Shown: positions 3,808-33,708 of the stretch, in pieces
Layout: each line of letters opens with the position of its first letter
Position numbering within the stretch: position 1 is the first letter of the stretch
NCBI GenBank assembly: GCA_018714105.1
Contig: DVNW01000021.1
Span: 63,900 to 127,899 of the forward strand
Length of the DNA: 64,000 nt
Direction of reading: 5' to 3'
From: Candidatus Faecicola pullistercoris
GTDB lineage: Bacteria; Bacillota; Clostridia; Christensenellales; CAG-917
Made by a program: the position numbers and the translations under genes
Notes under the pieces: model-generated
Databases searched by the model: none
What the model saw: the letters and a program-made list of their open reading frames with translations, nothing else
What the model was told of the DNA's origin: nothing

Positions 3808-3883
3808 GGGGGTGTAGCTCAACTGGTAGAGCGCTTGAATGGCATTCAAGAGGTAAGGGGTTCGACCCCCCTCATCTCCACCA
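3808..3883 (+). tRNA. tRNA-Ala (anticodon GGC), CCA encoded
   Basis: Manual cloverleaf: acceptor gggggtg/catctcc with G3:U70, D arm gctc-aactggta-gagc, anticodon arm cttga-atGGCat-tcaag, T arm agggg-ttcgacc-cccct, discriminator A plus CCA. Confidence 0.9.
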
Positions 3884-3952
3884 CCAAAACCGAACGGGAA
3901 AGCCGTTCGGTTTTTTTATGTTGGCGGGGGACGGGCTGCGCCCCGAAAGGCC
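3866..3952 (+). repeat. direct repeat copy 1 (tRNA-Ala 3' end + terminator + about 33 nt)
   Basis: 3866-3919 is identical to 4030-4083 (54 nt). Similarity continues with a few mismatches and one 1-nt indel to 3952/4117. Confidence 0.9.
3886..3917 (+). terminator. intrinsic terminator of tRNA-Ala
   Basis: aaaa-ccgaacgg-gaaag-ccgttcgg-ttttttt. Confidence 0.8.
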
Positions 3953-4029: not shown

Positions 4030-4117
4030 CCCCCCTCATCTCCACCACCAAAACCGAACGGGAAAGCCGTTCGGTTTTTTTATTTCGGCAGGGGGACGGG
4101 CTACGCCCCGAAAGACC
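4030..4117 (+). repeat. direct repeat copy 2 (orphan tRNA-Ala 3' fragment + second terminator copy)
   Basis: Same as copy 1, offset by 164 nt. No T-stem 5' strand or tRNA body precedes it, so it is a tRNA 3' fragment and not a second tRNA. Confidence 0.9.
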
Positions 4118-4321
4118 CAGGCAAACAAGGGTAGCATAGATTAGGCAATTGACCCGTGTACAAATATTGTTAAACTGTCCCGAAAACGGTGCATTGAATG
4201 TTCTAAAATATACTTATTAAGGGAAGCGTTGCTCCGCATGAGTAATTTAATAAATTTGGAAAAGCTGCAAAATGCATGACAATATATTATAGGCATGGTA
4301 GAATAAATAAGGAGTAAGCAT

Positions 4322-5317
4322 ATGTCGTTAGAAGCAAAGAAAACACTTATATTCCGATTATATCAGGTGCTGTACGAGTATTCTGACGCAGATCGCCCTT
4401 TAACACAAAGTAAAATAATAGAACTATTGGAAAAAAATTACGGCATCGAGGCCGAAAGAAAGGCGATAGGAAGAAATGTTTCGTACCTTACGGAAATGGG
4501 GATTGATATTGTCGGCACCCCTAAGGGGTGTTATCTTGCAGAACGGCATTTTGAGCATTCCGAGCTGCGCGTTTTAATAGACAGCATATTGTGCAGTCGT
4601 CATATAAATCCGAGTCATTCGGGAGCACTTATAGAAAAACTCATAAAATTCGGCGGACGCAATTTCAAAGCCCACGTCAAGCACGTTTTTTCCGTAAACG
4701 ATTGGAGCAAGTCCGAAAATCAGGAATTTTTTTATAATATCGACCTTATTGACGAAGCTATAGAAAAAGAAGTGCAGATAACGTTCGATTACAATAAGTA
4801 CGGTATCGATAAAAAACTTCATAAATCCAAGTCGCACAAAGTCAGTCCCTATCAGATGATACTGCGTAATCAGCATTATTTTCTTATGGCTTATGAGGAG
4901 TATTGGGGGAATATGGCGTTTTACAGGGTGGATAAAATCAGCAACATAAGCGTTAAGAAAACACCGCGTACGCCTTTACGCGAAATAAAAGGTTATGAGC
5001 GCGGTATCAATTATAAAGAGCTTGCGCTGTCCCGACCGTATATGTATTCGGATAAACCCGAAACAATAACGCTGACGTGCCCCGAATGGTTTTTCGACGA
5101 AGTGGTCGACTGGTTCGGAACTGATGTAGCAGTTAAAAAGGCGGACGGAAATATGATTCAGGTGACTTTGACGGCAAGTCCCAGAGCAATGTCATATTGG
5201 GCAATGCAGTACTGCAATTATGCGGAAGTTGTGTCGCCGCCGCATCTGCGTGACGGCATAAAAGACAAACTCGCCTCCGCAGCGGAAAAATACAGGCGGG
5301 AAAAACAGGATAATTAA
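4322..5317 (+). CDS. WYL domain transcriptional regulator (N-terminal wHTH, WYL, C-terminal WCX-like domain)
   Basis: RBS aaggag. The N-terminal HTH segment is LTQSKIIELLEKNYGIEAERKAIGRNVSYLTEMG. The WYL-type core is VSPYQMILRNQHYFLMAYEEYWGNMAFYRVDKISNI. The C-terminal segment is YAEVVSPPHLRDGIKDKL. Confidence 0.8.
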   Translation: MSLEAKKTLIFRLYQVLYEYSDADRPLTQSKIIELLEKNYGIEAERKAIGRNVSYLTEMGIDIVGTPKGCYLAERHFEHSELRVLIDSILCSRHINPSHSGALIEKLIKFGGRNFKAHVKHVFSVNDWSKSENQEFFYNIDLIDEAIEKEVQITFDYNKYGIDKKLHKSKSHKVSPYQMILRNQHYFLMAYEEYWGNMAFYRVDKISNISVKKTPRTPLREIKGYERGINYKELALSRPYMYSDKPETITLTCPEWFFDEVVDWFGTDVAVKKADGNMIQVTLTASPRAMSYWAMQYCNYAEVVSPPHLRDGIKDKLASAAEKYRREKQDN

Positions 5318-5558
5318 AGCCGAAAACTGCAAATATTCGACACAAACCGAAAGCCACAGTTTAAGTATTACGAATAATTGCTTCCGTTTTAAAAACGCTG
5401 TCGTAAGGACGGCGTCCTGCATATAAGGGCGGTTTAATGTTTAAAACTGAACCATATTGTTCTGAGTTTGGAAGGTTCAGAACCAGGATTAGCTCAAATT
5501 TTTGCATAAATTGCGTAAGTGAGGCGATTTTTGATTGATTTCGATATCTGTGCGCGCG

Positions 5559-5592
5559 ACAATGTCCTTTTTTAGGGTCATTGTTTTTTTTA
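5559..5592 (+). terminator. terminator-like hairpin plus T-run just upstream of the mini-DnaE gene
   Basis: acaatg...cattgt imperfect stem followed by ttttttttatt; it lies 30 nt before the ATG at 5622. Confidence 0.3.
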
Positions 5593-5621
5593 TTATTATG
5601 GTAACGGAGGTTTATACTTTT

Positions 5622-6641
5622 ATGAATAATACCGAAAATAATGCGACAAATGAGAAGATGCTTGCGGATGCCGACGCAATAGAAAAGGTGATTGCCGAGC
5701 TTCCCGTTTTGACAAGGCAAGGGACAATTGGCATTGTGAATATTCAAAGGGCATTGAGATGCGGATACGCGACGGCTGCAAAGATATACGATTTGATAAA
5801 AGATAAAAGCCGAATAAAGATAGAAAAGAGTTTTTTTGAACTTGACGCAAAAAGGCAAATGCTTTATCTTGAACAAATCCTGAACGACGCCCTGCCCGAC
5901 AGCGGATATACTCCGGACGAGGTGTATGAGAGGCTTTATAAAGAGATGGCGGTCATAGAGAGCCTCGGTATGGCGGCGGACTTTTTGTTTGCGCGGTCCG
6001 TTGCCGAAATTTTGCGCGAACTGAACCAAGCTCCGTGCTTTGTAGGGATAGGGTGTTGCTCTCTTGTGGCGTTTATGATCGGCATTACGGAGCCTGAACT
6101 CGATCCTATCGAACACGGACTCATCTTCGAACGCGGTTTCGGAGACGGCAAAAAGCCCGAAATGCCGTTTTCCTTCTTTGTTTCTCCCGAAACCGTGCCT
6201 GAATTTACGGAACGTATGAATAAGATTTACGGAGATACGCTTTCATTCAGACGCGACGGCGGATTAGTTTTGTCCGTAGGGGATACAAGCGTTACCGTTA
6301 TAGACACGATTGAACCTCTCCGACAGTCGTATGCCGGCATCGAGGAGTCAATCAATGACTCCGGCATAGCGGTATTTCAGGAAGACTATATGCGTATCAT
6401 GCATTACGCGGCAGGCTACGACTATACCGAGGCCGACAACATACGCAAAACAATAGGGAAGCGCAAAACGGAACAAATCGAAAAATACCGAAGGGAGTTT
6501 GTACGCAAGGCGGCGCATGGTCTTTCGCTTGCGGAAAGTCAGCGTTTGTTTGCCGAAATTGAATTCAAATTGAAACACGCCTGTTGCAAGGCGTATGTTC
6601 TGTCGGCAAAAACCGTTCTCGACGCCCTCTGTTTTGATTAA
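5622..6641 (+). CDS. FtsK-gamma-like winged helix fused to a truncated, catalytically inactive DNA polymerase III alpha (DnaE)-like fragment
   Basis: RBS ggagg. IGIVNIQRALRCGYATAAKIYDLIKDK resembles the FtsK gamma domain. ERLYKEMAVIESLG..DFLF..VGIGCCSLVAFMIGITEPELDPIEHGLIFERGF and VFQEDYMRIMHYAAGYDYTEADNIRKTIGKRKTEQIEKYRREF match conserved DnaE core motifs. The PDxDxDF catalytic aspartate position reads PEMPFSFF. Confidence 0.65.
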   Translation: MNNTENNATNEKMLADADAIEKVIAELPVLTRQGTIGIVNIQRALRCGYATAAKIYDLIKDKSRIKIEKSFFELDAKRQMLYLEQILNDALPDSGYTPDEVYERLYKEMAVIESLGMAADFLFARSVAEILRELNQAPCFVGIGCCSLVAFMIGITEPELDPIEHGLIFERGFGDGKKPEMPFSFFVSPETVPEFTERMNKIYGDTLSFRRDGGLVLSVGDTSVTVIDTIEPLRQSYAGIEESINDSGIAVFQEDYMRIMHYAAGYDYTEADNIRKTIGKRKTEQIEKYRREFVRKAAHGLSLAESQRLFAEIEFKLKHACCKAYVLSAKTVLDALCFD

Positions 6642-6655
6642 ATTTTCTTTAATTC

Positions 6656-6686
6656 AAAACCCCGCGCCGAAAAGCGCGGGGTTTTT
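6656..6686. terminator. bidirectional intrinsic terminator between convergent island genes
   Basis: aaaa-ccccgcgc-cgaaaa-gcgcgggg-ttttt. Confidence 0.8.
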
Positions 6687-6707
6687 AGTTCAGGCTGGTT
6701 ATAAACG

Positions 6708-7853
6708 TCAGTGGGTATTATTTAATCCGAGTTGTCTGAGTATATTTTTTGCCACATTGTCAATCATTTTTTCCTTATTGTCAATCATTTTTTCCTTTTC
6801 GGTATCTTCTTCAAAATACCATTTTACAACGGGGTTGTCTGCTCCCGATAACTTTGTGAGATTGATTTTGCAATTTTCATTAGCGTTTTCCTTGTCGGAT
6901 TGTTGGTTCGGATCAAGATTTAGTTCGTCTTTAAACCATTCGGGCTTTATGTACCACCATTTGTCCCCTTTTTGGCAATACAAGTTTGTGTAGTATGCTA
7001 CACGGCCAACTTCTTCATTATTATTTCCATGGTTTATTTTATAGATTTTGGGTTTGATTTTAGACATATCATAGCCTAGACTGCTAAGCTTGGACGTCAA
7101 AGCCTCAAAAAACGCGGTTCTTATTTGTTCCTTTACTGTATCCATACCGTCTGCCAATGCGCAGGCAGCCTTAAAGGTGTCCGCTTTGTTTATCATTTCA
7201 AGTATTTTTTCTGCATTCATTATATTTTTTGTCTCCTTCGTCAGAATTTCGCAATATTGACTTATCAGTCCGTTTTTGTTTGATTTTTCCAAATCTCCCA
7301 GCCATTTAGTCAGTTCTGCAAAGGAAAGATTGTAATATTCGGTGTTGTCGAGCGAGCATTTTTTTTCGCATTCGGAACAAGTGGTTTTATTTGCAGACCG
7401 TCCTGTCGGAGTAAGGAAAATCAGAGTAAATTGTTTGTTTGATTTTTGCAGATACCGATGATATCTTAAAAGTTGTGTCGGTTGTTCGCCCGCGCGCCAT
7501 TTAACTTCGATTGCGACGATATATTTTTCCGCTTCGAAATATAAGTCAATGCGTCCGTTCTTGGATTTCGGGCAGTCCGACATGGCAGGACAAAAGAATT
7601 CGCATTGGCTGCTACACAATTTACCTGCATTTTTGTTCTCGTTCAGTTTAAAAAGCTTTATAAAACTATCCCAATTATTATCAATCAGATATTTCAAAAA
7701 TCTGCTGTGAAATAATTCTTTATTTTCTATGTTCAGAATTTGGAAAATGTTATCGTTCGAAACGGAGCCGTATTCAAGTTCGGTCGTTTTCGGACAGCTT
7801 AGCAGCTCTTTGATTGCCTGTTGAAAATCATCAGTTTGATTATTATTCCCCAT
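6708..7853 (-). CDS. PD-(D/E)xK nuclease family protein (PDDEXK_4-like)
   Basis: Start at MGNNNQ with RBS ggagagg. N-terminal NIFQILNIENKELFHSRFLKYLID, then GRIDLYFEAEKYIVAIEVKWRAGEQPTQLLRYHRYL (D...E-x-K core). The C-terminal half has no family I recognise. Confidence 0.7.
   Translation of the reverse strand: MGNNNQTDDFQQAIKELLSCPKTTELEYGSVSNDNIFQILNIENKELFHSRFLKYLIDNNWDSFIKLFKLNENKNAGKLCSSQCEFFCPAMSDCPKSKNGRIDLYFEAEKYIVAIEVKWRAGEQPTQLLRYHRYLQKSNKQFTLIFLTPTGRSANKTTCSECEKKCSLDNTEYYNLSFAELTKWLGDLEKSNKNGLISQYCEILTKETKNIMNAEKILEMINKADTFKAACALADGMDTVKEQIRTAFFEALTSKLSSLGYDMSKIKPKIYKINHGNNNEEVGRVAYYTNLYCQKGDKWWYIKPEWFKDELNLDPNQQSDKENANENCKINLTKLSGADNPVVKWYFEEDTEKEKMIDNKEKMIDNVAKNILRQLGLNNTH
6756..6797 (-). 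repeat. perfect 21-bp tandem duplication inside the nuclease gene 3' end
   Basis: attgtcaatcattttttcctt occurs twice back to back and encodes KEKMIDN-KEKMIDN. Confidence 0.95.
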
Positions 7854-7905
7854 AAAGTCCTCTCCTTTGTGTATATAAAAATTATAACAATCAGTTTTCG
7901 CAGTG

Positions 7906-8391
7906 TCAAGAATAGACGTGCCATTTGGTGATTTTGTAGGAGTATTCGTGAGACGACCAGGCGCGATAGCCCTTGTTGCTTTGCGCGTGCAAAAACGCCT
8001 CGTCTCCGGGGGCAAGCGTTACGAAACTTGCTTGGTCGCTTCCGAGCAGGTTGCCGTCCGCGTAGAAGTTGGCTTCAAACGAAACCTTTTTGGTGGTGTT
8101 TGAGGTGTTTTTGACCTTGACGACGACGATGGGGTACAGATTGTTGCCTATTATCGTGTAATAAGGATTTGTTACAAGATGTTCTTCCAGAATCTCGATT
8201 CCGCTCATACCGTTTCCGAACGATAAGGCGATTATTATGATTACCGCCACGACTGCAATCGCCACTATGATAAATTTCTTTCTGCCGCCGGAAATATTAT
8301 CTTTGGTCGGTTCGGAACAGGCGCCGAATTGCAAAGACTGCCAGTCTTTAATCATATCGTTAAGGTTATTGTTTATATTGTTTTCTTGCAT
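7906..8391 (-). CDS. single-pass membrane protein with small beta-rich ectodomain (FxLYD/DUF4352-like)
   Basis: Start at MQENNINN with RBS aggagg. TM helix FIIVAIAVVAVIIIIALSF. The C-terminal segment VVVKVKNTSNTTKKVSFEANFYADGNLLG resembles the FxLYD-type domain. It lies 52 nt upstream of the nuclease gene on the same strand. Confidence 0.55.
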   Translation of the reverse strand: MQENNINNNLNDMIKDWQSLQFGACSEPTKDNISGGRKKFIIVAIAVVAVIIIIALSFGNGMSGIEILEEHLVTNPYYTIIGNNLYPIVVVKVKNTSNTTKKVSFEANFYADGNLLGSDQASFVTLAPGDEAFLHAQSNKGYRAWSSHEYSYKITKWHVYS

Positions 8392-8500
8392 GTTGCACCT
8401 CCTGAGCCAATTATAACTTACTTCTCGGTGCTTTTTTGTCGCATTGGGGTAGCTAATATACAATTGTGTGACGATGCAGTAAGAACAAGGAGGAATTTTT

Positions 8501-9076
8501 ATGCATTTGACTGAACTTATAGAAAAATCATATATCGTTGCGGTAGACATCGGCAAAATCGTTCGTCATGGCAAAAGCAAAATATTGTATATAAGTGCCG
8601 TCAAGGTGTGCGGATGGAGAGCATGTAAAGATATTAAGTACGATAAACTGAATAATGTTGGAAGTTTTTATCGACGCATTTCCTATAGGCGCATATTCTG
8701 CGCCGGCGCAGACAGCAAAAAAACTCGTATAAATGTCGAGCACGGGGAATGTGATTTGCATACGGCATTATTAGGCTTCAAAAATTTTTTGGGCGATGCA
8801 ATTTTGGTTGGGTATGATTTCAAAAGGTTTGATTCCTTGTTGATCAGTTCAGGAAAAAAATATAAAATAGATTTTGACAATCGCAGGTTGGACACACTCG
8901 ACATTGCTAAAACGATGTTTAAAGACAAAGTAAAACTATATGATTTGTATTTTCTGCACCGTATGTGTTCGTGCAAATATATACAGCCCGATAATCTGTG
9001 TTATCCGGCAATTGCAACTGCGGAGTTGTTGGCAGGATTAGCTGTACGCGATGAGTATGTACATGATAATTACTGA
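8501..9076 (+). CDS. DnaQ/PolC-type (DEDD) 3'-5' exonuclease fold protein with degenerate active site
   Basis: RBS aggagg. YIVAVDIG..ISAVKV (Exo I, DxE reads DIG), GDAILVGYDFKRFDSLLI (Exo II, HN reads YD, FD kept), RLDTLDIAK, CYPAIATAELLAGL (Exo III, H reads Y and the Asp is missing). Confidence 0.6.
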   Translation: MHLTELIEKSYIVAVDIGKIVRHGKSKILYISAVKVCGWRACKDIKYDKLNNVGSFYRRISYRRIFCAGADSKKTRINVEHGECDLHTALLGFKNFLGDAILVGYDFKRFDSLLISSGKKYKIDFDNRRLDTLDIAKTMFKDKVKLYDLYFLHRMCSCKYIQPDNLCYPAIATAELLAGLAVRDEYVHDNY

Positions 9077-9248
9077 TTTTTATTTTTCGGGTTGCAGTTA
9101 TTCACGCTCGCATTGATTTATACCTTCGTTGCTCGGAGAAAACATTGAAAGAGGAAAAGACAGAGACTTGTATTTTCAGCGCTTTGTATTATAATTACAA
9201 TGAATTGCGCAATTACATTTAAATTGTCTTGATTTAAGGGGGATTCAG

Positions 9249-9470
9249 CGGTAAAGGAAAATATCTGACACGCAAAGCATTTGAAGGGACTCTTTACCTG
9301 CGGAAATATTTTTCAGGGGAAAAGCCGCCTTTTCGGACGCCGTAGGGCATTGTATAGCGGATTGTCTGAAACAATATGCGGAAGACCTGTATTCGGACGT
9401 CGAATTCGAGCAGAAATGAGCAAAGTACTCGCATGTGAGTCCCTTTACGAAAGAGTCGCTCTTGTACCGC
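9249..9470 (+). pseudogene. dead internal fragment of an asparagine synthetase (asnB-like) gene
   Basis: It aligns base for base with 18740-18962 of the intact asnB (222 vs 223 nt). There is one 1-nt deletion and a TGA in the original frame. Similarity stops abruptly at both ends. Confidence 0.85.
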
Positions 9471-9863
9471 TATTATTAAATTAACACGAAAGTGCGGAAC
9501 AGACGGAAAAAAGGAAACGCATATACCTGACTTACATATGCCTCAGCCGTAGCTACGTATATATTTGCTTATACAAATTATAATAGCGCGAGGTTTGCAC
9601 CTGGGATGTGAAAGCAAAGACAATATTACTTTGTTAAACAACAAACAGATTATAAACATCTCTGCTTGCAATTGTTTTTTATGTCGGCGGGGGAATATTA
9701 ATATTAAAACCTGAAAAATGTCGGAGATTCGGTAAAACATAAAAAGAGAATATAAAAATGATAATGCTATAATGAAATACGGGTAGCTTTTTCCGTAATA
9801 GCGATTTTCAAAATTGACGTTTGCTTGAAAGCTATGTTATTTCGGATTTTAACATATGGAGTG

Positions 9864-9892
9864 AAAAAACCGAGTGGACGTCTCGGTTTTTT
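9864..9892 (-). terminator. intrinsic terminator at the end of the minus-strand nitrogen operon
   Basis: aaaaaaccgag-tggacgt-ctcggtttttt immediately after the ANTAR gene stop. Confidence 0.75.
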
Positions 9893-9902
9893 GGTTATGC
9901 GG

Positions 9903-10487
9903 TTATTTATAGGTGTTTATGATGTTTCGGGCGATTTCGGATTTGGTGAGGCAGCGGTCCATGGCTTGCTTTTCGATATAGCGGTGGGCGTCCTCCTCGG
10001 ACATTTTAAGCACGTCTATCAGAAGCCATTTTGCGCGGTTTACGGTGCGGATTTCTTCCATTTTATCCTTTACGGACGATACGGTTTTTTCATAGCGTCT
10101 GAGGCGTTCGCGCGTGGCGCACACAAAGTCGAGCGCCTGCGCAACCATTTGAGGCGAAGTGGGTTTTGGCAGAGTCAGCACGCCGAATTCGCTTACTTTG
10201 GAATAGGTCTGCGGATAGACGTCCGCTTTTACGAATACGAGTGCTACCGAGTTTTTTTCGTTGCAGACGTCGATGGCGAGTTTTATGCCGAAGTCGTCGG
10301 GAAGGGGCGAGTTTACGATTACTATATCGTAGTCTCTTTCCAGCATGGCGCGCTTAGCCTGCGAGACCGAAAGTACGGTTTTGACGGGGAAAAAGCGGTT
10401 TTCGCGGAGTACCGACGACAGAGAAGAGGTAAACTTCTCCGTTGACGATACCGTTAAAACGCTGTAAATCCGCTCTTTGAGCGCCAT
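9903..10487 (-). CDS. ANTAR-domain RNA-binding antiterminator with pseudo-receiver domain
   Basis: C-terminal ANTAR pattern EEIRTVNRAKWLLIDVLKMSEEDAHRYIEKQAMDRCLTKSEIARNII. In the N-terminal CheY-like fold the DD pocket reads SS and the phospho-acceptor Asp reads Asn (DIVIVNSPLPDD). Confidence 0.8.
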   Translation of the reverse strand: MALKERIYSVLTVSSTEKFTSSLSSVLRENRFFPVKTVLSVSQAKRAMLERDYDIVIVNSPLPDDFGIKLAIDVCNEKNSVALVFVKADVYPQTYSKVSEFGVLTLPKPTSPQMVAQALDFVCATRERLRRYEKTVSSVKDKMEEIRTVNRAKWLLIDVLKMSEEDAHRYIEKQAMDRCLTKSEIARNIINTYK

Positions 10488-10500
10488 AGTTCCTCCGTTA

Positions 10501-11712
10501 TTAAAGTTTGCAGTAAATCTGAATTAAAGATTCGGGCAGACAACTTTTTACAAAGTCGCTGTCGGCCGCAATGCGTTTAGCCTCGGCAAGGGAAGCGGGC
10601 AGGGTTTTGAACCGTGCGGTTACGCTTTTGTCCGCCGCAAAAAGGTTTATGTCGGCGGGTTCGGGCAGTTCGGCGCGGCGTTCTATACCGTCGAGTCCCG
10701 CGTATATAAGCAATGCAAACGCAAGGTAGGGGTTGCATGCGGGGTCGGGAGAACGCAGTTCGGCGCGGCTGTACTCGCCCGTCGCCGCGGGAATGCGTAT
10801 GAGTTGCGAGCGGTTTTCGCCCGACCAGGATATATATTTAGGCGCCTTGTTGTTGCCGAGCCGTGAGTATGACGCTTCGGTAGGATTGAGAAACAGAGTA
10901 ATATCGGCAATCCTGTCGAGTATGCCCGCGATGACGTAAGGCATAAGCTGTTTGTTTTTGCCTTCTCCGGCGGAGATATTGATATGAAGGCCGTTGCCGG
11001 GCATGCTTTGCAAGGGCTTGGCCGAGAAATCGGCGTACAGACCGTTGCGCGCGGCAACCGTTCTGACTACCGATTTGAAAGTTACCGAATTGTCCGCCGC
11101 TACAAGAGGAGAGGAATATCTGAAATCGATTTCATTCTGTCCGGGGCCTTCCTCGTGGTGCGAGCTTTCGGGCATAATATCCATCTGTTCGAGAGTAAGG
11201 CATATTTCGCGTCTTACGTTTTCGCCCTTGTCCTCGGGCGCGATATCCATGTATCCGGCGTTGTCGTAAGGCACGGTTGTGGGCAGACCGTTTTCGTCGA
11301 GTCTGAAAAGGTAAAACTCCATTTCCGAGCCGAAGTTAAAAGAGTAACCCGCTTTTGCGGCGTCGCTTACGGCTTTGGCCAGTATGTTGCGGGTATCGTT
11401 TTCGAAAGGAGTGCCGTCGGGATAAGATACGTTGCAGTATAACCTTACCACTCTGCCGTGTTCGGGTCGCCACGGAAGCACGGACAGCGTGGAGGAATCG
11501 GGATGCAGAAAGAGGTCGGAATGTACTTCGCCTCCGAAACCTTTTATGGCCGAAGCGTCTATGGCAATGCCGTGCCTGAAAGCCCTTTCGAGTTCGGAGG
11601 GCATTATCGATACGTTTTTCTGAACGCCGAAGGGGTCGCAGAACGCAAGACGTATGAATTTGACGTCCTCTTCTTTTACGAATTGCATTACTTCTTTTGC
11701 CGTGTAATTCAT
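10501..11712 (-). CDS. glnA: glutamine synthetase, short type I-like form (403 aa)
   Basis: GS N-terminal beta-grasp (VKFIRLAFCDPFGVQKN) and catalytic domain (FGSEMEFYLF, HHEEGPGQNEIDF, NGLHINIS, RSPDPACNPYLAFA). Confidence 0.85.
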   Translation of the reverse strand: MNYTAKEVMQFVKEEDVKFIRLAFCDPFGVQKNVSIMPSELERAFRHGIAIDASAIKGFGGEVHSDLFLHPDSSTLSVLPWRPEHGRVVRLYCNVSYPDGTPFENDTRNILAKAVSDAAKAGYSFNFGSEMEFYLFRLDENGLPTTVPYDNAGYMDIAPEDKGENVRREICLTLEQMDIMPESSHHEEGPGQNEIDFRYSSPLVAADNSVTFKSVVRTVAARNGLYADFSAKPLQSMPGNGLHINISAGEGKNKQLMPYVIAGILDRIADITLFLNPTEASYSRLGNNKAPKYISWSGENRSQLIRIPAATGEYSRAELRSPDPACNPYLAFALLIYAGLDGIERRAELPEPADINLFAADKSVTARFKTLPASLAEAKRIAADSDFVKSCLPESLIQIYCKL

Positions 11713-15328: not shown

Positions 15329-15380
15329 CAAAGGCGTCTTTGAGATACCACTCTCGAAGGCGCCTTTGTCTATATTTTTA
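15329..15380 (+). promoter_or_regulatory. 5'-proximal leader hairpin (17-bp stem, hexaloop) plus U-rich tract upstream of glnN
   Basis: caaaggcgtctttgaga-taccac-tctcgaaggcgcctttg followed by tctatattttta. It shares the caaaggcg/cgcctttg stem base with the divergent leader. Confidence 0.55.
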
Positions 15381-15404
15381 TATTTTAACAAGGAGAATTA
15401 CATT

Positions 15405-17501
15405 ATGCAAACGGTAGCAGATTATTTCGGAAGTATGGTATTTGACGACCGCGTTATGCGCGCAACGCTTTCGGCGGAAGTTTACAGAAGTCTCAAAAAG
15501 ACTATTGACCAGGGAGCGCAACTCGATTTATCCGTTGCCAACGCCGTCGCGTCCGCAATGAAGGACTGGGCGGTTTCGAAGGGCGCTACTCACTATACGC
15601 ATTGGTTTCAGCCGCTGACGGGTATCACGGCCGAAAAGCACGACAGCTTTATAACGCCCGCTCCCGACGGCAGAGTAATAATGGAATTTTCGGGCAAGGA
15701 ACTTATCAAAGGCGAACCCGACGCCTCGTCCTTTCCCTCGGGCGGACTGAGAGCCACCTTCGAGGCTCGCGGATATACCGCATGGGACCCGACTTCGTAC
15801 GCGTTTATCAAGGGCAAAACGCTTTGTATACCTACTGCGTTCTGTTCGTACGGCGGAGACGCTCTCGACAAGAAAACCCCGCTTCTGCGTTCGATGGAGG
15901 CGCTCAACAGGCAGGCTATGCGTATCCTTAAACTGTTCGGGAACAAAAACGTAAAATGCGTTAGAACGTCGGTAGGGCCCGAACAGGAATATTTCCTTGT
16001 GCCCAAGGAGCTTTACGACAAGCGCAAGGACCTGATTTACACGGGGCGCACTCTGTTCGGCGCCAAACCGCCGAAGGGGCAGGAAATGGACGACCATTAT
16101 TTCGGCGTCATCAAGCCGCGCGTGGCCGCGTTCATGGACGACCTCAACGAGGAACTCTGGAAACTCGGCGTACTGGCCAAAACCGAACATAACGAAGTTT
16201 CGCCGGCTCAACACGAACTCGCGCCCGTATTTTCAACCACAAACATAGCGACGGACCATAACCAGCTTACTATGGAAATTATGCAGAAGGTGGCGGCAAG
16301 ACACGGCCTGGTTTGCCTGCTGCACGAAAAGCCTTTTGCCGGCGTGAACGGAAGCGGCAAACATAACAACTGGTCCATAGCCACGGACAAGGGAGTAAAC
16401 CTGCTTACCCCCGGCGAAACGCCTCACGAAAACGCGCAGTTCCTGCTTTTCCTTTGCGCCGTATTAAAGGCCGTGGACGATTATCAGGACCTTCTGCGCA
16501 TAGCAGTGGCGACTGCCGGCAACGACCACAGGCTTGGCGCGAACGAAGCTCCTCCCGCAGTGGTTTCGGTATTTTTGGGAGACGAGCTGACCGCAATACT
16601 CGACGCCATAGAAAACGACCTTCCTTACAGCGGGACAAAAAAGAAACTTCTTAAACTCGGCGTAGACGTTCTGCCACTGTTCCCGAAAGACACAACCGAC
16701 AGAAACCGTACTTCACCGTTCGCTTTTACCGGTAATAAGTTTGAGTTCCGTATGTTGGGCTCTTCAAACAGCATTGCCTGCGCAAACATTATGCTTAACA
16801 GCGCGGTGGCCGAATCGCTTAAAATTTATGCCGACAGACTTGAAGACGCCAAGGACTTCAACACGGCCCTTCACGCCATGATCAAAAAGACGATTAAGGA
16901 CCATAAGCGCATAATATTCAACGGCAACGGCTATGACGACGCCTGGATAGAAGAGGCAACTCTGAAGCGCGGATTGCTGAATTATCCCACTACGCCGGAC
17001 TGTATGCCTCACCTGATGGATAAAAAGAACGTGGATATGCTTACTTCTCACGGCGTTTATTCGGAAAAGGAACTTGCTTCCAGATGCGACATAATGCTTG
17101 AAAACTACTGCAAGACTGTTGTTATAGAAGCGTCTACCATGATAGACATGGCGCAGAAACAGATTATTCCCGCAGTGGAAAAATACGCGGCGTCGGTAGC
17201 GCGGGCGGCGGTTTCCAAACAGACTTTGTTACCCGACATCGACTGCGGCTACGAAAAAGAACTGGTAAAGACGCTTTCATGCCTGACGGCTCAGGCCTCG
17301 GCAAAAACAGCCGCTCTCAAAGCGGCGTTGGAAAAGGTCAGGGTGGCTTCTTCCGTTACCGAAGAGGCGTTTGCCATACGGGACGGGCTTCTGCCTGCGA
17401 TGAACGAGCTCAGGGCTGTCGCGGACGAGGCGGAAACGCGTACTGCCGAAGAATTCTGGCCCTTCCCGACGTACGGCGAACTGCTTTTCGGCGTCAGATA
17501 A
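15405..17501 (+). CDS. glnN: glutamine synthetase type III (698 aa), copy 1
   Basis: Start at MQTVADYF with RBS aaggaga. GS-III length and motifs ([56 protein letters not shown]). Confidence 0.9.
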
Positions 17502-17522: not shown

Positions 17523-20725
<3,203 letters not shown>

Positions 20726-25900: not shown

Positions 25901-28900
25901 ATGGCGCAGAATGTTAAAGAGCAACCCAAAACAACGGAAAATATTGTAGAAATCTCGCTGGATTGCAGCAGCGTGGTAAGTTATTTCAGTATCCAGAACG
26001 ACATCAGTCCTATTAAACGCCTGTATCTAAAAAATACTTCGGCGGAAGACATAGAGGGCGTAAAAATAAAGGTTACGTCAACGCCCGATTTTATCATACC
26101 GTTCGAAACGGAACAAAGCGTTCTGCCCCGCAAGACGAACCTCAAATTCGAACTGCCCGTCAAGCTGTCGCCTCTGTTTATGGTGGCGGCGGACAGACGC
26201 ACCGAGGGCGAACTGACCGTGGAAGTTATTGCGGAGGACAAAGTCGTAGCGTCAAAAAGCTGTAAGACGGACATACTGGCTTACAACGAGTGCAATTACG
26301 GGCTTAATCCCGAGTCGGTAGCGTCTTTCGTAAAGCGCACGGCGCAGATAAATTCGCTTATTACCGAAATAAGTCAAAAACTCAAAAACTGGAATTTCGA
26401 TTCGTACGGCGGTTACAACGGCAACCGCAACAACGTAAGAAACTATTTTGCCGCTTGTTTCAGCGTTTTGTCGGACAAGCATTTTATCGATTGCGGAAGC
26501 AGTTCTTCAGGCGACAGCGAAATGGTGCAGAGTCATAAGGAGATTTTGGCTTCCAAGGTTGCCACTCCGCTCGAAACCGCGCTGTTGCTGGCGTCGCTTA
26601 TCGAGGCTAACGGCCAGAATGCGGTGATTGCAAAAATAGACGGCAAATGGTTTACCGGCGTCTTTTTGGTAAACGAATGTCTGCCCATGGTCGTAAGCGA
26701 CGACGCGGACACTATCATCAAAAAGGCCGAAAAAGGGGTGAACGATTTTACTCTCGTGAGTGTGGCCGACGTATTTACGGGGCTGGCCTTCGACAAGGCC
26801 GAAAAGAGCGCGCTGGCGTTTTTGCGAAAGGCGCAGACGGTCGATTTTATCGTAGACGTAAAGCGCGCGCGCATTATGCATATATATCCGCTGCCCGAGA
26901 GGGTTTCGGGTAAGAACGGATACGACCTTGTAAGCAGCAAGGATTACGTTACCTCCGTCGCGCCGAAGCAGATTACCGAATATAAAGGAGACGTGGCGGG
27001 GCAAAAGGAAATCAACCGTATCACCCAGTGGGAAAGACGCCTGCTCGATATGGATATGAGAAACGCCTTGCTGAATTTCAAGGACTCCAAAACGGCGGTG
27101 AAGCTGCTGGTGCCCGGACTTGACGATTTCGTGGCCGCAATGTGGGAGAACAGAACCTACGTTCTGGACCCCAAACCGAAAGACGGCGCGGCCGCTCTGG
27201 AAAAGATAACCGAGGGTTTTGAAAGAAGCAGTTTCTTAAAGCCTTTTGCCGATTACGTGGTTTATGAGTACAAAAATAAACGGTTATTATCCGTTTACGA
27301 TAAGAAAGAACACGACGCCACTCTTCTGAGGCTGTTCAGGAAAGAGTGTTCGATACAGGAAGAAACGGGTACCATGACGCTTTATCTGGCGGCAGGGTTT
27401 TTAAAATGGAAGGAAGACGAAAACGCCGAAGAAAAATACGCGCCTCTTTTGCTGTATCCCGTATCCATGACAAAAAAAGGCGTAGCCGTCCCCGTTTACA
27501 CGCTTGACGTCAACGTCGACGATATCCGCCTGAACAGTACTCTGCTTGAATTTTTGTATCAGGAGTTTAACCTCGATATCAGAGGGCTTGCCACCGTGGA
27601 GCTCGATTCGCAACAGGCCGTAATGTCCATAATAGCAAGGCTGAAAAGGGAAATAGTCGGCTTTAAGGGTTGGGAAATTCTGGGCAACGTCTTTCTGTCG
27701 AGTCTGTCGTTTGCGAATTACCAGCTTTGGTACGACGTCAAATACCGTTCGGACAGGTTCAGGGAACACCCGATTATCAATTCTCTTATCAACAACAAGC
27801 TCGAACTGCCGTCCGACGCCTTCGATTTGTCCGAACGCAGCAGCGACGAGGCCTATACGGCCGAGGAACGCATGTATCTGCCCATATCGGCCGATTCGTC
27901 GCAGTACAGCGCCATATACGACAGCCTTTCCAAGAGTTTTGTTCTTCACGGGCCTCCCGGCACGGGTAAATCGCAGACCATTACCAACATTATAGCCAAT
28001 AACATCGTCAGGGGCAGGAGGGTGCTGTTCGTAGCCGAGAAGATGGCCGCGCTTTCCGTCGTTCACCATCGCCTGCAAACCATAGGCCTGGGGGATTTCT
28101 GTCTGGAACTGCATTCCAACAAAACCAACAAAAATACCGTTCTGGCGCAGATTGTCAATACTCTGTCGCTGGCGGACCAGCCGCAGGAAAACCTTAGCGA
28201 CGACAAACTTGCCGACATCAACGCGGCGGTAGATAAATTACAGAAAGAACTCGACGCCATTCACCGCAAACGCTATCTGGGAATATCCCTTTATCAGGCG
28301 ATACTGGGATACTTTGAAAATCAGGATTCGCCCGACTGCCTGCGTATAGACAGTCTGTTTTACGAAAAACTCGTAGAAAGCTCGTTTGCCAAATATCTCG
28401 ATATTCTTACGGAGCTGACGCTGCGGGCAAAAGAGTGCGGCAATATAGAAAAATCGCCGTTCAGGCACATAGGCGGATTTGTCTACGACGAAAAATGGAA
28501 CGCGCAGGGCAGCGCCGTTTTGGAAATCTACGGCATGGAGCTCAGACATCTCAGACAATACGCAAGAAGTCTGCTTCCTTTGTTCAACATGCGCACGGTA
28601 TCGCTTACGCAGGTCAAACTTAAAGCTTTGTACGATATATGCGAGGCGCTTAAAGAGGATTACGTGGCGCGTTATTTCAAGTCGTCCGATAGCCTTAAAA
28701 ATCCCAAAGGAATAGTCGATTCGTATATAGAAGCCGGTAAAAAATCGCAGATAATGATGAGCGAATATACCGCGCGTTACGGCATTTTCCCCACCTCGGT
28801 GTCCGAGGAGGAACTCGAAGAAGCCGTAAACAAAGGCAATTACGGCAGAAACCTCAAAAAGGCCGTTCCGTCCTCGGTGGATAAGAAGGACAGGCACGCC

Positions 28901-31611: not shown

Positions 31612-33708
31612 TTATTTTACGCTGAACAGCAACTCGCCGTAAGTCGGGAACGGCCAGAATTTTGCGGCGGTGTTGAGTTCCATTTCGTCGGCTACCGCCC
31701 GAAGTTCTTTCATTGCGGGGATCACTCTGTCGCGATAGCTTTCGGCCGCTTTTGCTCCTTCGCCGAATCCGTGAGTTTCAAAGAGCGCGGTTTCCAGAAG
31801 TTTGAGTTTTTTGCTTCCGCTGGAATACAGTCCGCTCAGTTTTGCCACGAGGGCGGTCTCTTCCTCGGAGGATATGAAATTGTCTACCGCGCGCTTTGCG
31901 GCGATTTCTTCGCAAAGCTCTTTGATGTATTCGCTTACTGCGGGCAGAATTTCCTTTTTCATCATATCCGACATGGTAAGAGCCTCGATATTCATTACCT
32001 TGCAGTAGTTTTCGGTAAGAATTTCCTGCCTGGACCTGAGTTCGGCTTCGGTAAAGACGCCGTGCCGAGCAAACAGAGCCATGTTCTTTTCAAAAGTGTA
32101 GCACGGGAGTACGTCGGCCGTGCTCTTGTAATTGAGTAAGCCGCGTTTACCCGCTTCTTCCAGCCACTCTGCCGAGTAGTTGTTGCCGTTGAAGATGATG
32201 CGTTTGTGAGCCTTTATGGTTTTTCTTATTATTCTGGTGATGGCGTCGTTAAAGTTTTCGTCGCTGTTTTCAAGCTCGTCCGCAAATATTTTCAGCGTAT
32301 CGGCAACGGCCGTGTTTATAACGGTGTTGGAATCGGCAATCGAAAAGGCCGAACCCAGCATCCTGAACTCGAATTTGTTGCCCGTAAACGCAAAAGGAGA
32401 GGTGCGGTTTCTGTCCGTGCTGTCCTTAGGCAGCTGGGGCATGACGTGCACGCCTATTTCCACGTTGCATTTCGCTCTGCGGCTGTAAGTGCGGTCTTCT
32501 TCAATTGCCGAAAGAATACCGTCCAGCTCCTCGCCGAGATATATCGAAACGATTGCGGGCGGCGCTTCGTTGGCTCCCAGTCTGTGGTCGTTGCCCGCGC
32601 TTGCCGCCGTCAGCCTCAACAAATCCTGATAGTCGTCAACGGCCTTGATTACCGCCGACAGGAACAGCAGGAACTGAGCGTTGTCGTACGGGCTGTTTCC
32701 GGGTTCGAGCAGGTTAATGCCCGTATCGGTGGAAAGCGACCAATTATTATGTTTACCGCTTCCGTTTACGCCTTCAAACGGCTTTTCGTGCAAAAGACAC
32801 GTGAGTCCGTGACGCACGGCAACCTTTTTCATGACCTCCATGGTAAGCTGATTGTGGTCGTTGGCTATGCTTGTAGGCGTATATATGGGCGCCAGCTCGT
32901 GCTGCGAGGGAGCAACTTCGTTATGCTTGGTTTTGGCCGAAATGCCGAGTTTCCAAAGTTCCTCGTCAAGGTCCTTCATGTATGCGGCTACGCGCGGTTT
33001 GATCGCGCCGAAGTAGTGGTCTTCCAGTTCCTGTCCTTTCGGGGGACGGGCGCCGAACAGCGTCCTGCCCGTGTACATTATATCCTTGCGCATGCCGCAG
33101 ATTTTGCCGTCGATAAGGAAATATTCCTGCTCGGGCCCCGCGGTGGGAATAACTTTTTTAACGTCGTTCTTTCCGAAAAGGCGCAGTATCCTCAATGCCT
33201 GTTTATTGATGGCTTCGATGGACTTTAAAAGAGGGGTTTTTTTGTCGAGGGCCTCGCCCGTGTAAGAGCAGAACGCAGTCGGAATACACAGTATTCCGTC
33301 TTTTATGAACGCGTAGGACGTCGGATCCCATGCTGTATATCCGCGCGCCTCGAAAGTCGCCCTGAGCCCGCCCGACGGAAAGGACGAAGCGTCGGGTTCG
33401 CCTTTAATAAGCTCCTTGCCGGAAAACTCCATTATAACCCTTCCGTCGCTTGTGGGGCTGATGAACGAATCGTGCTTTTCGGCGGTTACGCCCGTCATGG
33501 GCTGGAACCAATGCGTATAATGAGTTACGCCTTTTTCGATGGCCCAATCCTTCATGGCGCCGGCAACGACGTCAGCGACTTCGCGCGATAAGCTTCTGTC
33601 CTCGGCTATGCATTTTTTTAGCTCGTTATAAGTTGCGGCAGGCAGCCGTTTTTTCATAACCGCGTCGTTAAACGCCATCGAGCCGAATATTTCCGACATA
33701 GGAACCAT
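31612..33708 (-). CDS. glnN: glutamine synthetase type III (698 aa), copy 2
   Basis: Same length and motifs as 15405-17501. Long identical peptide stretches ([40 protein letters not shown]) but many synonymous differences at the DNA level. Confidence 0.9.

Follow-up and report, generated by a model that had tools for sequence, protein, structure and literature searches.

At positions 4118-9863 of a 64,000-nucleotide (nt) stretch of the Candidatus Faecicola pullistercoris genome (GenBank assembly GCA_018714105.1, contig DVNW01000021.1; the whole stretch is called the window below), we identified an island of five genes that encode a WYL-type regulator, a truncated relative of the replicative DNA polymerase DnaE (mini-DnaE), a PD-(D/E)xK nuclease, a membrane protein and an exonuclease-like (exo-like) protein. 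Comparison with homologous loci shows a conserved, selected and horizontally exchanged module that is situated in defence islands and carries a fast-evolving nuclease whose predicted catalytic core is intact. We interpret it as a horizontally acquired accessory locus, now fixed in the species, which most likely serves in anti-phage or anti-plasmid defence by means of a WYL switch, a nuclease effector and a dead polymerase as non-catalytic partner, and we put the chance that this interpretation is right at about even. All five open reading frames (ORFs) picked out in a first-pass annotation of the DNA are intact at the following coordinates, with a Shine-Dalgarno-like site before each:

4322-5317, forward strand: transcription regulator with WYL and WCX domains and a probable N-terminal winged helix-turn-helix (Pfam WYL and WCX; PADLOC WYL, expectation value (E) 7e-25)
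5622-6641, forward strand: mini-DnaE, with an N-terminal winged helix and the catalytically dead palm and partial fingers of a C-family polymerase (Pfam, NCBIfam, AlphaFold/Foldseek)
6708-7853, reverse strand: PD-(D/E)xK nuclease (PDDEXK_4, PADLOC PDC-S26) of 381 amino acids (aa), under diversifying selection
7906-8391, reverse strand: membrane protein with a single transmembrane segment and, at its C-terminus, an FxLYD domain (NCBIfam FxLYD_dom, E 1.8e-5, exceeding the cut-off)
8501-9076, forward strand: exo-like protein, optional, probably of a DEDDh-derived fold (weak DEDDh matches)

The mini-DnaE protein retains two separated pieces of a bacterial replicative polymerase. In Pfam it matches the start of the palm (DNA_pol3_alpha, PF07733, positions 18-102 of 260, E 1.2e-10) and the end of the fingers (DNA_pol3_finger, PF17657, positions 112-163 of 166, E 3e-12), while the NCBIfam DnaE equivalogs score it at 41-76 bits against cut-offs of 434-1806. 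Its AlphaFold model, with a predicted local distance difference test score (pLDDT) of 80.5, has as its best 14 Foldseek matches in the PDB the alpha chains of Pol III, followed by two PolC chains, all at a probability of 1.0 and with a best E of 9e-8; in a viral fold library the model matches full-size phage DnaE only. When aligned to Thermus aquaticus DnaE, the family covers only residues 378-489 and 738-817, and 38 residues take the place of approximately 248 in DnaE, among them the thumb, the proximal fingers and a portion of the palm. Mini-DnaE has E-x-P-F-S-F-F-V where DnaE has the PDxDxD catalytic motif, none of 23 family members has an aspartate or glutamate at the aligned catalytic positions, and the third aspartate falls in the deleted segment. 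The likeness to DnaE (Pol III alpha) therefore lies in the fold, the two sequence blocks and the GIxxFQEDxM and ADxIR motifs, whereas mini-DnaE has 339 aa rather than approximately 1,100-1,200, lacks the PHP domain, the thumb, the beta-clamp-binding motif and the OB/tau-binding region, and has gained an N-terminal winged helix and, in some members, a truncated exonuclease domain. Judged from its sequence, mini-DnaE is a real, conserved pseudo-enzyme and cannot polymerise. The first-pass annotation had described it as a dead mini-DnaE fused to an FtsK-gamma-like winged helix; the polymerase core without catalytic aspartates stands, but the FtsK-gamma assignment is weak, at 18 bits on the window protein against a cut-off of 30.6. 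Counting the window protein, such a helix is seen below the cut-off, at 18-26 bits, in three family members, and many distant members are without it.

Several conserved motifs mark the family, namely GCCS (invariant in the closer members and variable in the distant ones), DPIEHGLIFERGF, FQEDYM and GY.Y.EA..IR. A word-seeded search gathered 36 mini-DnaE clusters ranging from 100% down to 26% identity, the full-length ones nearly all of 334-353 aa, and an exhaustive hidden Markov model search of 1.84 billion representatives gave approximately 19 clusters at 50% identity that align in one contiguous match and measure 259-450 aa. These clusters stand sharply apart from the more than 7,000 ordinary DnaE proteins, whose matches fall into two widely spaced segments, and across the clusters the mini-DnaE architecture is constant down to 24% identity. 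Mini-DnaE genes were present in three species in a GTDB scan, and one true member (L111; L-numbers denote the loci or contigs compared, P-numbers proteins of the mini-DnaE family) came from a JGI metagenome scan; the IMG/VR viral, INPHARED phage and PLSDB plasmid collections returned full-size DnaE genes only and no mini-DnaE family member. Analysis of the ratio of non-synonymous to synonymous divergence (dN/dS, omega), which had been proposed as a check on the homologues, found them intact and under purifying selection, with an omega of approximately 0.2 within the species and 0.17-0.32 between species, and a value of approximately 0.2 excludes neutral decay. More generally, the genes of the locus are all intact and have between-species omega values of 0.05-0.3.

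The extreme C-terminus of mini-DnaE is variable. About half of the family ends exactly in [FYLM]-P-F (P0022, P0030, P0031, P0047, P0050, P0052, P0053, P0056, P0058 and P0059), and the window allele ends in LCFD (6621-6641). The [FYL]-P-F ending resembles the IPF/LPF tip of single-stranded DNA-binding protein (SSB), but a reading as an SSB-like tail was dropped; the ending is more probably the counterpart of the conserved 'YP' motif of DnaE, placed at the point of truncation.

Genomic contexts were recovered for approximately 10 mini-DnaE lineages, and they reveal a conserved frame in which the WYL gene is followed by mini-DnaE and then by the antisense gene for the FxLYD membrane protein. Two slots in this frame receive cargo, most often a PD-(D/E)xK nuclease of the PDC-S26 type. 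Slot 1, between the WYL gene and mini-DnaE, is empty in the window and in L193, is filled by a 433-aa PDC-S26 nuclease in L191, L013 and L007, and is filled by unrelated 220-aa or 240-aa genes in L093, L095 and L008. Slot 2 separates mini-DnaE from the membrane gene; the 381-aa type of nuclease occupies it in the window species, L008/L193 and L191, and it is empty in L093, L095, L013 and L111. The gaps around slot-1 cargo are short (approximately 15 nt to the WYL gene and 90 nt to mini-DnaE), which suggests one transcription unit. Wherever upstream DNA is present, mini-DnaE is accompanied by the WYL gene (the window, L093, L095, L191, L193 and L007), with the exception of a solo group described below, and it is accompanied by a PDC-S26 nuclease in the window species, L008/L193, L191, L013, L007 and L012, in three subtypes and two gene orders. 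At L012, whose mini-DnaE is 33% identical, the gene stands after a 501-aa PDC-S26-like nuclease and before a gene of the uracil-DNA glycosylase (UDG) superfamily. Both the 433-aa and the 501-aa nucleases found beside mini-DnaE elsewhere (PDD2 and PDD3) match PDC-S26, and a reverse look-up from the window nuclease gave the same association, with 2 of 2 homologues (51% and 54% identity) adjoining mini-DnaE and the WYL gene. Every PDC-S26 context examined also holds mini-DnaE, and a WYL gene as well where the contig reaches far enough. The expected co-occurrence of mini-DnaE with WYL regulators and PDDEXK_4 nucleases thus recurs across contexts and gene orders; of the co-occurring set as originally drawn, the WYL, mini-DnaE and membrane genes form the conserved frame, but the nuclease is exchangeable and the exo-like gene optional.

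The cargo is diverse in other respects. L191 carries two PDC-S26 nucleases, of 433 aa (9334-10635) and 382 aa (7001-8149), which flank the same mini-DnaE. Neither the 220-aa gene of L093 (3927-4589) nor the 240-aa gene of L095 has a Pfam or PADLOC match; the 240-aa family (L095 7188-7910, L008 2-580) has a weak UDG-superfamily match through its L008 homologue (E 0.01), and L012 encodes a 290-aa UDG-superfamily protein at 4050-4922 (E 8.5e-9).

Mini-DnaE also moves between genomes. In the solo group (L004, L010 and L015) the gene, at 8001-9047, lies between a mannosidase gene of glycoside hydrolase family 2 (GH2) and a MatE transporter gene, and its synonymous divergence (dS) of 0.15, compared with approximately 1.1 for the flanking genes, indicates a recent between-species transfer of the gene alone. 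L011 has a frameshifted mini-DnaE copy at this solo site; two ORFs of 457 and 121 aa there were considered as partners and rejected, as they overlie a broken GH2 gene. Within a single species the polymerase-like part of mini-DnaE falls into two allele classes at a dS of 0.58, approximately a between-species distance, and the winged-helix part is common to both. Together with the low dS of the solo gene, these two classes point to frequent horizontal exchange.

The nuclease is the most variable component. It matches PDDEXK_4 (PF14281) at 68.3 bits against a cut-off of 22.3 over residues 34-201, and PADLOC PDC-S26 with an E of 9.4e-32 over residues 25-354 of 381, while a search for similar solved structures gave spurious matches only. 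The D...ExK core can be read in the sequence as GRID...AIEVKW and is invariant in all seven nuclease alleles, in agreement with the earlier prediction of a PD-(D/E)xK nuclease with an apparently intact core. The statement that the island's contents match no named module has to be withdrawn on this point, since PDC-S26 is a named candidate family, listed in PADLOC as a putative single-gene system. The window nuclease resembles PDC-S26 in matching the models over nearly its full length and in its D...ExK core, and differs in its consistent association with a WYL regulator and a pseudo-polymerase and in showing within-species diversifying selection, which is not reported in the literature found that mentions PDC-S26. 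Two predicted elements delimit the gene:

6651-6690, no strand assigned: bidirectional terminator hairpin of the convergent mini-DnaE and nuclease genes (inverted repeat I10)
7881-7909, reverse strand: sigma-70-type promoter of the nuclease gene (TTGACA, 17 nt, TG-n-TATAAT), with 12 of 12 hexamer matches and an extended -10 element

Within the species, ten loci with an identical WYL protein carry seven distinct nucleases and seven distinct mini-DnaE proteins. Pairwise dN/dS of the nuclease is 0.85-2.7, and its dS (0.016-0.087) equals that of the neighbouring genes. Segregating sites are distributed over the three codon positions as 71:47:45, and the minimal changes number 129 non-synonymous and 22 synonymous. 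Alignment columns 151-300 account for 83 non-synonymous and 8 synonymous changes (binomial p=0.004 against neutrality), the catalytic core (residues 97-150) is almost invariant, and the nuclease differs from the neighbouring genes with a Fisher p of approximately 1e-11. With no rise in the synonymous rate and no bias in the substitution spectrum, these patterns indicate selection rather than targeted mutagenesis, and a diversity-generating retroelement or other hypermutation was rejected as the source of the variability, with no reverse transcriptase (RT), no adenine-specific spectrum and a normal synonymous rate. The locus of a second species repeats the pattern: its nuclease, at 79% identity compared with 90-97% for the other proteins, has diverged the most. 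The 90%-identity clusters of the window-like group contain only 1-3 sequences each, and for the nuclease type of the window (PDD1) there are at least 12 protein clusters of 71-86% identity. The window and L001 share 97-100% of their nucleotides in the flanks, and their identity drops to 66-95% only between approximately 5850 and 7900. The window/L097 allele alone has a 21-nt tandem duplication at 6746-6787, which adds an EKEKMID heptapeptide near the C-terminus of the nuclease.

The regulator at the head of the locus shows the opposite behaviour. Its assignment as a WYL protein was confirmed by Pfam matches to WYL (34.0 bits, cut-off 21.8) and WCX (24.7 bits, cut-off 23.9). For the N-terminal helix-turn-helix, the PADLOC WYL model spans residues 12-309, and HTH_11 is matched only in the L007 homologue, below the cut-off (E 4e-4). 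The protein is 100% identical in 10 of 10 strains, all of which were selected through this same WYL protein, and occurs in exactly this form on 21 contigs; the ten loci analysed have 0 non-synonymous and 10 synonymous segregating changes in the gene, and between species its omega is approximately 0.05. A probable operator lies upstream of it:

4176-4193, no strand assigned: imperfect palindrome TGTCCCG-AAAA-CGGTGCA, probable WYL operator (related palindromes in other lineages)

This palindrome abuts a promoter-like site at 4149-4176, and related palindromes of the general form TGTACCG-N4-CGGTACA precede the WYL genes of L093, L095, L191 and L193, making five lineages with the window; that of L193 is perfect (ATGTACCG-TTTT-CGGTACAT). 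No second copy occurs in the 64-kb window. The WYL and WCX domains, the head-of-locus position and a putative palindromic operator upstream of its own gene are features shared with BrxR and CapW. Homologues of BrxR co-localise with many defence systems (PMC9122601), and CapW, on sensing single-stranded DNA, lifts the repression of its immune operon (PMC11662680). The window protein differs from these in being only marginally similar to solved WYL proteins (E 0.009), and the gene directly controlled here would be a pseudo-polymerase rather than a recognised immune effector.

The membrane protein, predicted from the outset to be single-pass, does have one transmembrane segment, and our analysis adds the FxLYD domain. 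Its gene adjoins mini-DnaE in 8 lineages, and the FxLYD C-terminal domain is 85-87% conserved in the five closest of them. The exo-like ORF is more difficult to classify. It has weak DEDDh matches in PADLOC (2e-4), NCBIfam (7.7e-6) and a PDB profile search (0.045, 8fyc), reaches 25 bits against a cut-off of 247 for NCBIfam PRK08517, and has no RNase_T match in Pfam; its AlphaFold model, built from a 7-sequence alignment, has a pLDDT of 34.6 and is unusable. A manual reading of the alignment places an invariant glycine at the expected ExoI glutamate, in VAVDIGK, a region outside all profile alignments. The description of this ORF as a degenerate DnaQ/PolC-type exonuclease is thus upheld for an intact ORF of probably DEDDh-derived fold, while the fold and the 'dead' state are plausible rather than established. 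Cas2-DEDDh and CRISPR-associated DEDDh exonucleases are its best, though weak, matches, which fall below any curated threshold; the window protein further differs from them in the apparent replacement of the ExoI glutamate by glycine and in having no CRISPR context. Among the lineages that keep the frame, the window species, L095 and L111 are the only ones with this gene, and in 2 of the 10 strains (L099 and L100) it is cut to 93 aa and is therefore dispensable in nature. The deletion in these two strains, at approximately 8780-9725, also removes the adjoining asnB fragment and a third repeat copy described below. In four distant clusters an N-terminal exonuclease-like extension is fused to the winged helix and mini-DnaE, which links the two domain classes; in P0050, the one scanned as such, the fused domain matches RNase_T with an E of 1.6e-11 and comprises the ExoI and ExoII part only.

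The island is, as had been noticed from its composition, rich in AT: its GC content of 0.407 over 4118-9863 is below that of all other 5.7-kb windows sampled within the 64 kb. The surrounding sequence carries the traces of repeated integration:

3808-3883, forward strand: tRNA-Ala(GGC) (ARAGORN; Rfam 62.7 bits), an integration hotspot left of the locus
3866-3952, forward strand: att-like unit copy 1, made up of the tRNA 3' end, the terminator hairpin and the next approximately 40 nt (direct repeat families D1 and D3)
4030-4117, forward strand: att-like unit copy 2, 95% identical to copy 1, a scar of another integrated element
9250-9416, forward strand: asnB fragment, frameshifted (Asn_synthase, E 1.9e-8)
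9675-9694, forward strand: third partial repeat copy, of post-terminator sequence, 19 of 20 positions identical to 3912-3931

The reported duplication of the tRNA-Ala 3' end is real (3866-3930 and 4030-4094, terminator included, at 95% identity), and the copy number of the 164-nt unit of tRNA 3' end and terminator differs between strains, with one copy in L098, two in the window and three in L096. Elsewhere in the species, foreign DNA stops exactly at a partial copy of the tRNA-Ala 3' end: strain-specific cargo is joined at window position 4039/4040 in L099 and L102 and inside the tRNA at 3839 in L100. At this point L099 carries an element that encodes a serine recombinase and an SNF2 helicase, L100 a tyrosine integrase element and L102 the defence genes listed below, and the recombinase and integrase belong to these other elements, left of the att copy. 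Since foreign DNA ends at the tRNA-end copies, the tandem copies are hotspot scars of other elements, and every strain has the WYL locus on their right-hand side; the duplication does not mark the boundary of the island, as had been proposed, but a hotspot used by others. Direct repeats of the tRNA-proximal sequence occur at 3912-3931 and 4076-4095 and again at 9675-9694, and the last of these, a 20-nt copy for which 100 shuffles gave 0 matches, may be the right-hand scar of the locus's own ancient insertion. The dead asnB fragment noted at the end of the island is indeed frameshifted and matches, at 82% identity, residues 407-462 encoded by the intact asnB 8 kb downstream (17523-19100), which identifies it as a partial copy of the host's own gene rather than foreign DNA. 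No integrase, recombinase, transposase or relaxase was matched by the five ORFs in Pfam, PHROGs or NCBIfam, and a six-frame reading of the spacer at 9077-9900 revealed the asnB fragment alone, so that the claim of an island without an integrase is borne out for these ORFs and this spacer.

Homologous loci were expected to lie in defence islands if the system had a role in immunity, and they do. Directly upstream in L102 are GmrSD, an AlwI-like restriction enzyme, a prokaryotic Argonaute (pAgo, E 1e-170) and a pAgo-associated nuclease, and the neighbours in other species include a type III-A retron (L191), SoFic and a KAP NTPase (L095) and an IetA-like ATPase (L093). The retron adjoins the WYL gene of L191 and consists of a phosphoribosyltransferase (PRTase) and an RT (E 1.7e-127). 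The hosts of the locus are uncultured chicken-gut Clostridia, e.g. Candidatus Limadaptatus and Candidatus Stercoripulliclostridium. Elsewhere in the window, a second defence-type gene at 25901-31552 (forward strand) encodes a 1,883-aa protein with DUF4011, a superfamily 1 helicase (AAA_11/AAA_12) and an MTES_1575 nuclease domain, and matches PADLOC PDC-S37 (E 5e-293) and Hhe (E 3e-138); it is situated inside a region bounded by the type III glutamine synthetase paralogues at 15366-17501 (forward) and 31612-33708 (reverse).

We hypothesize that, in a defence system of this kind, the nuclease would be the effector that cuts invading DNA, and its variable C-terminal half may either form a recognition surface or be targeted by phage inhibitors. 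The WYL protein would repress the WYL/mini-DnaE transcription unit and, by analogy with CapW, may release it on binding single-stranded DNA that arises from infection or DNA damage. Mini-DnaE, which appears to keep the polymerase DNA-binding cleft and to have gained a winged helix, would serve as a non-catalytic partner on primer-template or 3'-end DNA, where it might sense replication intermediates or direct or license the cargo nuclease, and the exo-like protein might be an optional second accessory that binds 3' ends. Because mini-DnaE has none of the known beta, tau and epsilon binding sites, those replisome interfaces cannot be mimicked; the idea of a decoy is weakened, as the DNA/nucleotide cleft would be all that is left to mimic, and a decoy or sensor role for the replicase-derived proteins is not favoured over other non-catalytic roles. 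A bolder version would place the pseudo-polymerase at the heart of a new immune module, as a miniaturised, non-catalytic protein under a single-stranded-DNA-responsive WYL switch, which could be fused to, or elsewhere accompanied by, a likewise disabled proofreading-exonuclease domain. It would then act as a guard or decoy that licenses nucleases, and as such could report phage interference with, or hijacking of, primer termini, or it would act as a dominant-negative replication blocker that aborts infection. We regard this version as speculative and on the unlikely side.

Several observations weigh against a role in defence, or against the nuclease and the frame acting together. PDC-S26 is a computational candidate only, and WYL regulators also control DNA-damage responses. 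The mini-DnaE family is tiny and confined to uncultured gut Clostridia, so that its lineages are thinly sampled, and its solo clade (L004, L010 and L015) has neither a WYL gene nor a nuclease. The fused exonuclease domain and the separate exo-like gene have no demonstrable homology by hhalign, at a probability of 1.6%. The other points concern the tie between nuclease and frame. The nuclease has its own perfect consensus promoter and its terminator; no operator copy was found before the nuclease or the exo-like gene; the frame is kept without a nuclease in L093, L095 and L111; and L105 combines the nuclease allele of L098 with the other mini-DnaE class. The nuclease therefore recombines independently of mini-DnaE alleles and could be an independent single-gene system lodged here. 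The WYL-controlled nuclease system envisaged in the first-pass annotation thus holds as a linked and selected module, but its nuclease is an exchangeable cargo with a promoter of its own. Taken further, these same points, with the listing of PDC-S26 in PADLOC as a putative single-gene system, favour an explanation by unrelated neighbours, in which the PDC-S26 nuclease would be a stand-alone defence gene in a permissive slot and the WYL, mini-DnaE and membrane genes a separate module. Against this explanation stand the occurrence of three PDC-S26 subtypes with mini-DnaE, the position of PDD2 inside the WYL/mini-DnaE unit at gaps of approximately 15 and 90 nt, and the finding that all clusters of PDD1 homologues, 32 in number, derive from one kind of sample and that both homologues looked up adjoin mini-DnaE; we consider it improbable, if worth keeping in view.

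An alternative function for the whole would be a WYL-controlled cassette for DNA-damage tolerance or repair, in which the dead polymerase serves as an ImuB-like scaffold while nuclease, exonuclease-like and UDG-like partners process lesions. ImuB, a component of the ImuA-ImuB-DnaE2 mutasome, is a catalytically dead Y-family polymerase that acts as a scaffold and works with active DnaE2. The likeness is a polymerase fold kept without catalysis in a cassette related to DNA damage or conflict; the window locus differs in that ImuB has the Y-family fold and that no active polymerase, ImuA or LexA/PafBC context is present. The partner domains are all of DNA-repair type (PD-(D/E)xK, DEDD, the UDG superfamily in L012 with a weak match in L008, and DNA_alkylation in a neighbour of the L193 locus), and the WYL regulators DriD, PafBC and SiwR are reported to drive DNA-damage regulons and to sense single-stranded DNA. 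A repair cassette is nevertheless doubtful given the patchy and partly horizontal distribution, the lowest GC content of the window, the location in defence islands and the strong diversifying selection on the nuclease, which is unexpected for a repair enzyme. The tight linkage and convergent orientation of the nuclease and mini-DnaE genes, a nuclease promoter that looks constitutive, and variation of both proteins between strains far beyond that of their neighbours could also suggest a toxin-antitoxin or addiction pair, with the nuclease as a toxin neutralised by mini-DnaE or the membrane protein. We think this quite improbable: one nuclease allele (L098 and L105) occurs with mini-DnaE alleles only 78% identical, there is no co-varying interface, mini-DnaE is common without a nuclease, and a 339-aa protein of complex fold is unlike typical antitoxins.

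The other alternative offered from the start, a decaying phage or integrative-element replication module in which the mini-DnaE and exo-like ORFs would be pseudogene remnants, fits the AT-rich, tRNA-adjacent position with short direct repeats at its flanks and no integrase, the asnB fragment at one end, the truncated exo-like gene in two strains and the frameshifted solo copy in L011. Against it stand the motifs and architecture conserved across all of the mini-DnaE clusters, an omega of approximately 0.2, and the finding of no full-length relative in the phage, plasmid and viral collections searched and of no adjacent replication genes; a look for a prophage replication module with an adjacent integrase likewise found neither such a module nor a resident integrase. 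We reject this alternative, whose probability we would put close to negligible. In its architecture the locus also resembles CBASS (cyclic-oligonucleotide-based antiphage signalling systems) of the kind that carries CapW, with a WYL protein, a Pol-beta-fold nucleotidyltransferase and a nuclease or membrane effector, and the DnaE palm and the cGAS/DncV-like nucleotidyltransferases (CD-NTases) belong to the same Pol-beta-like nucleotidyltransferase superfamily. The mini-DnaE model is only faintly like CdnD in Foldseek (probability 0.35), and mini-DnaE differs in having no PADLOC CD-NTase match and no catalytic carboxylates; Pfam and PADLOC scans of the five ORFs revealed neither SAVED nor Cap4 nor any other domain for sensing cyclic nucleotides.

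The regulator and the nuclease of this presumed defence locus are of known or candidate kinds, while neither the pseudo-polymerase family nor the frame-plus-cargo locus was found in the literature searched, in PADLOC or in PHROGs, and that literature held nothing relevant on WYL proteins with an inactive polymerase in defence or on PDDEXK_4 with DNA_pol3_alpha. To our knowledge, this would be the first case of a replicative C-family polymerase cut down to a non-catalytic module and taken into a conflict-type locus. The locus ties PDC-S26, an unvalidated PADLOC candidate, to defined partners. Its nuclease, next to a regulator that is identical between strains, ranks among the clearer natural examples of diversifying selection in a bacterial nuclease, and the variable residues may serve as a ready map of its functionally important surface. 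More generally, the layout of a conserved frame with swappable nucleases could be mined for new effectors.

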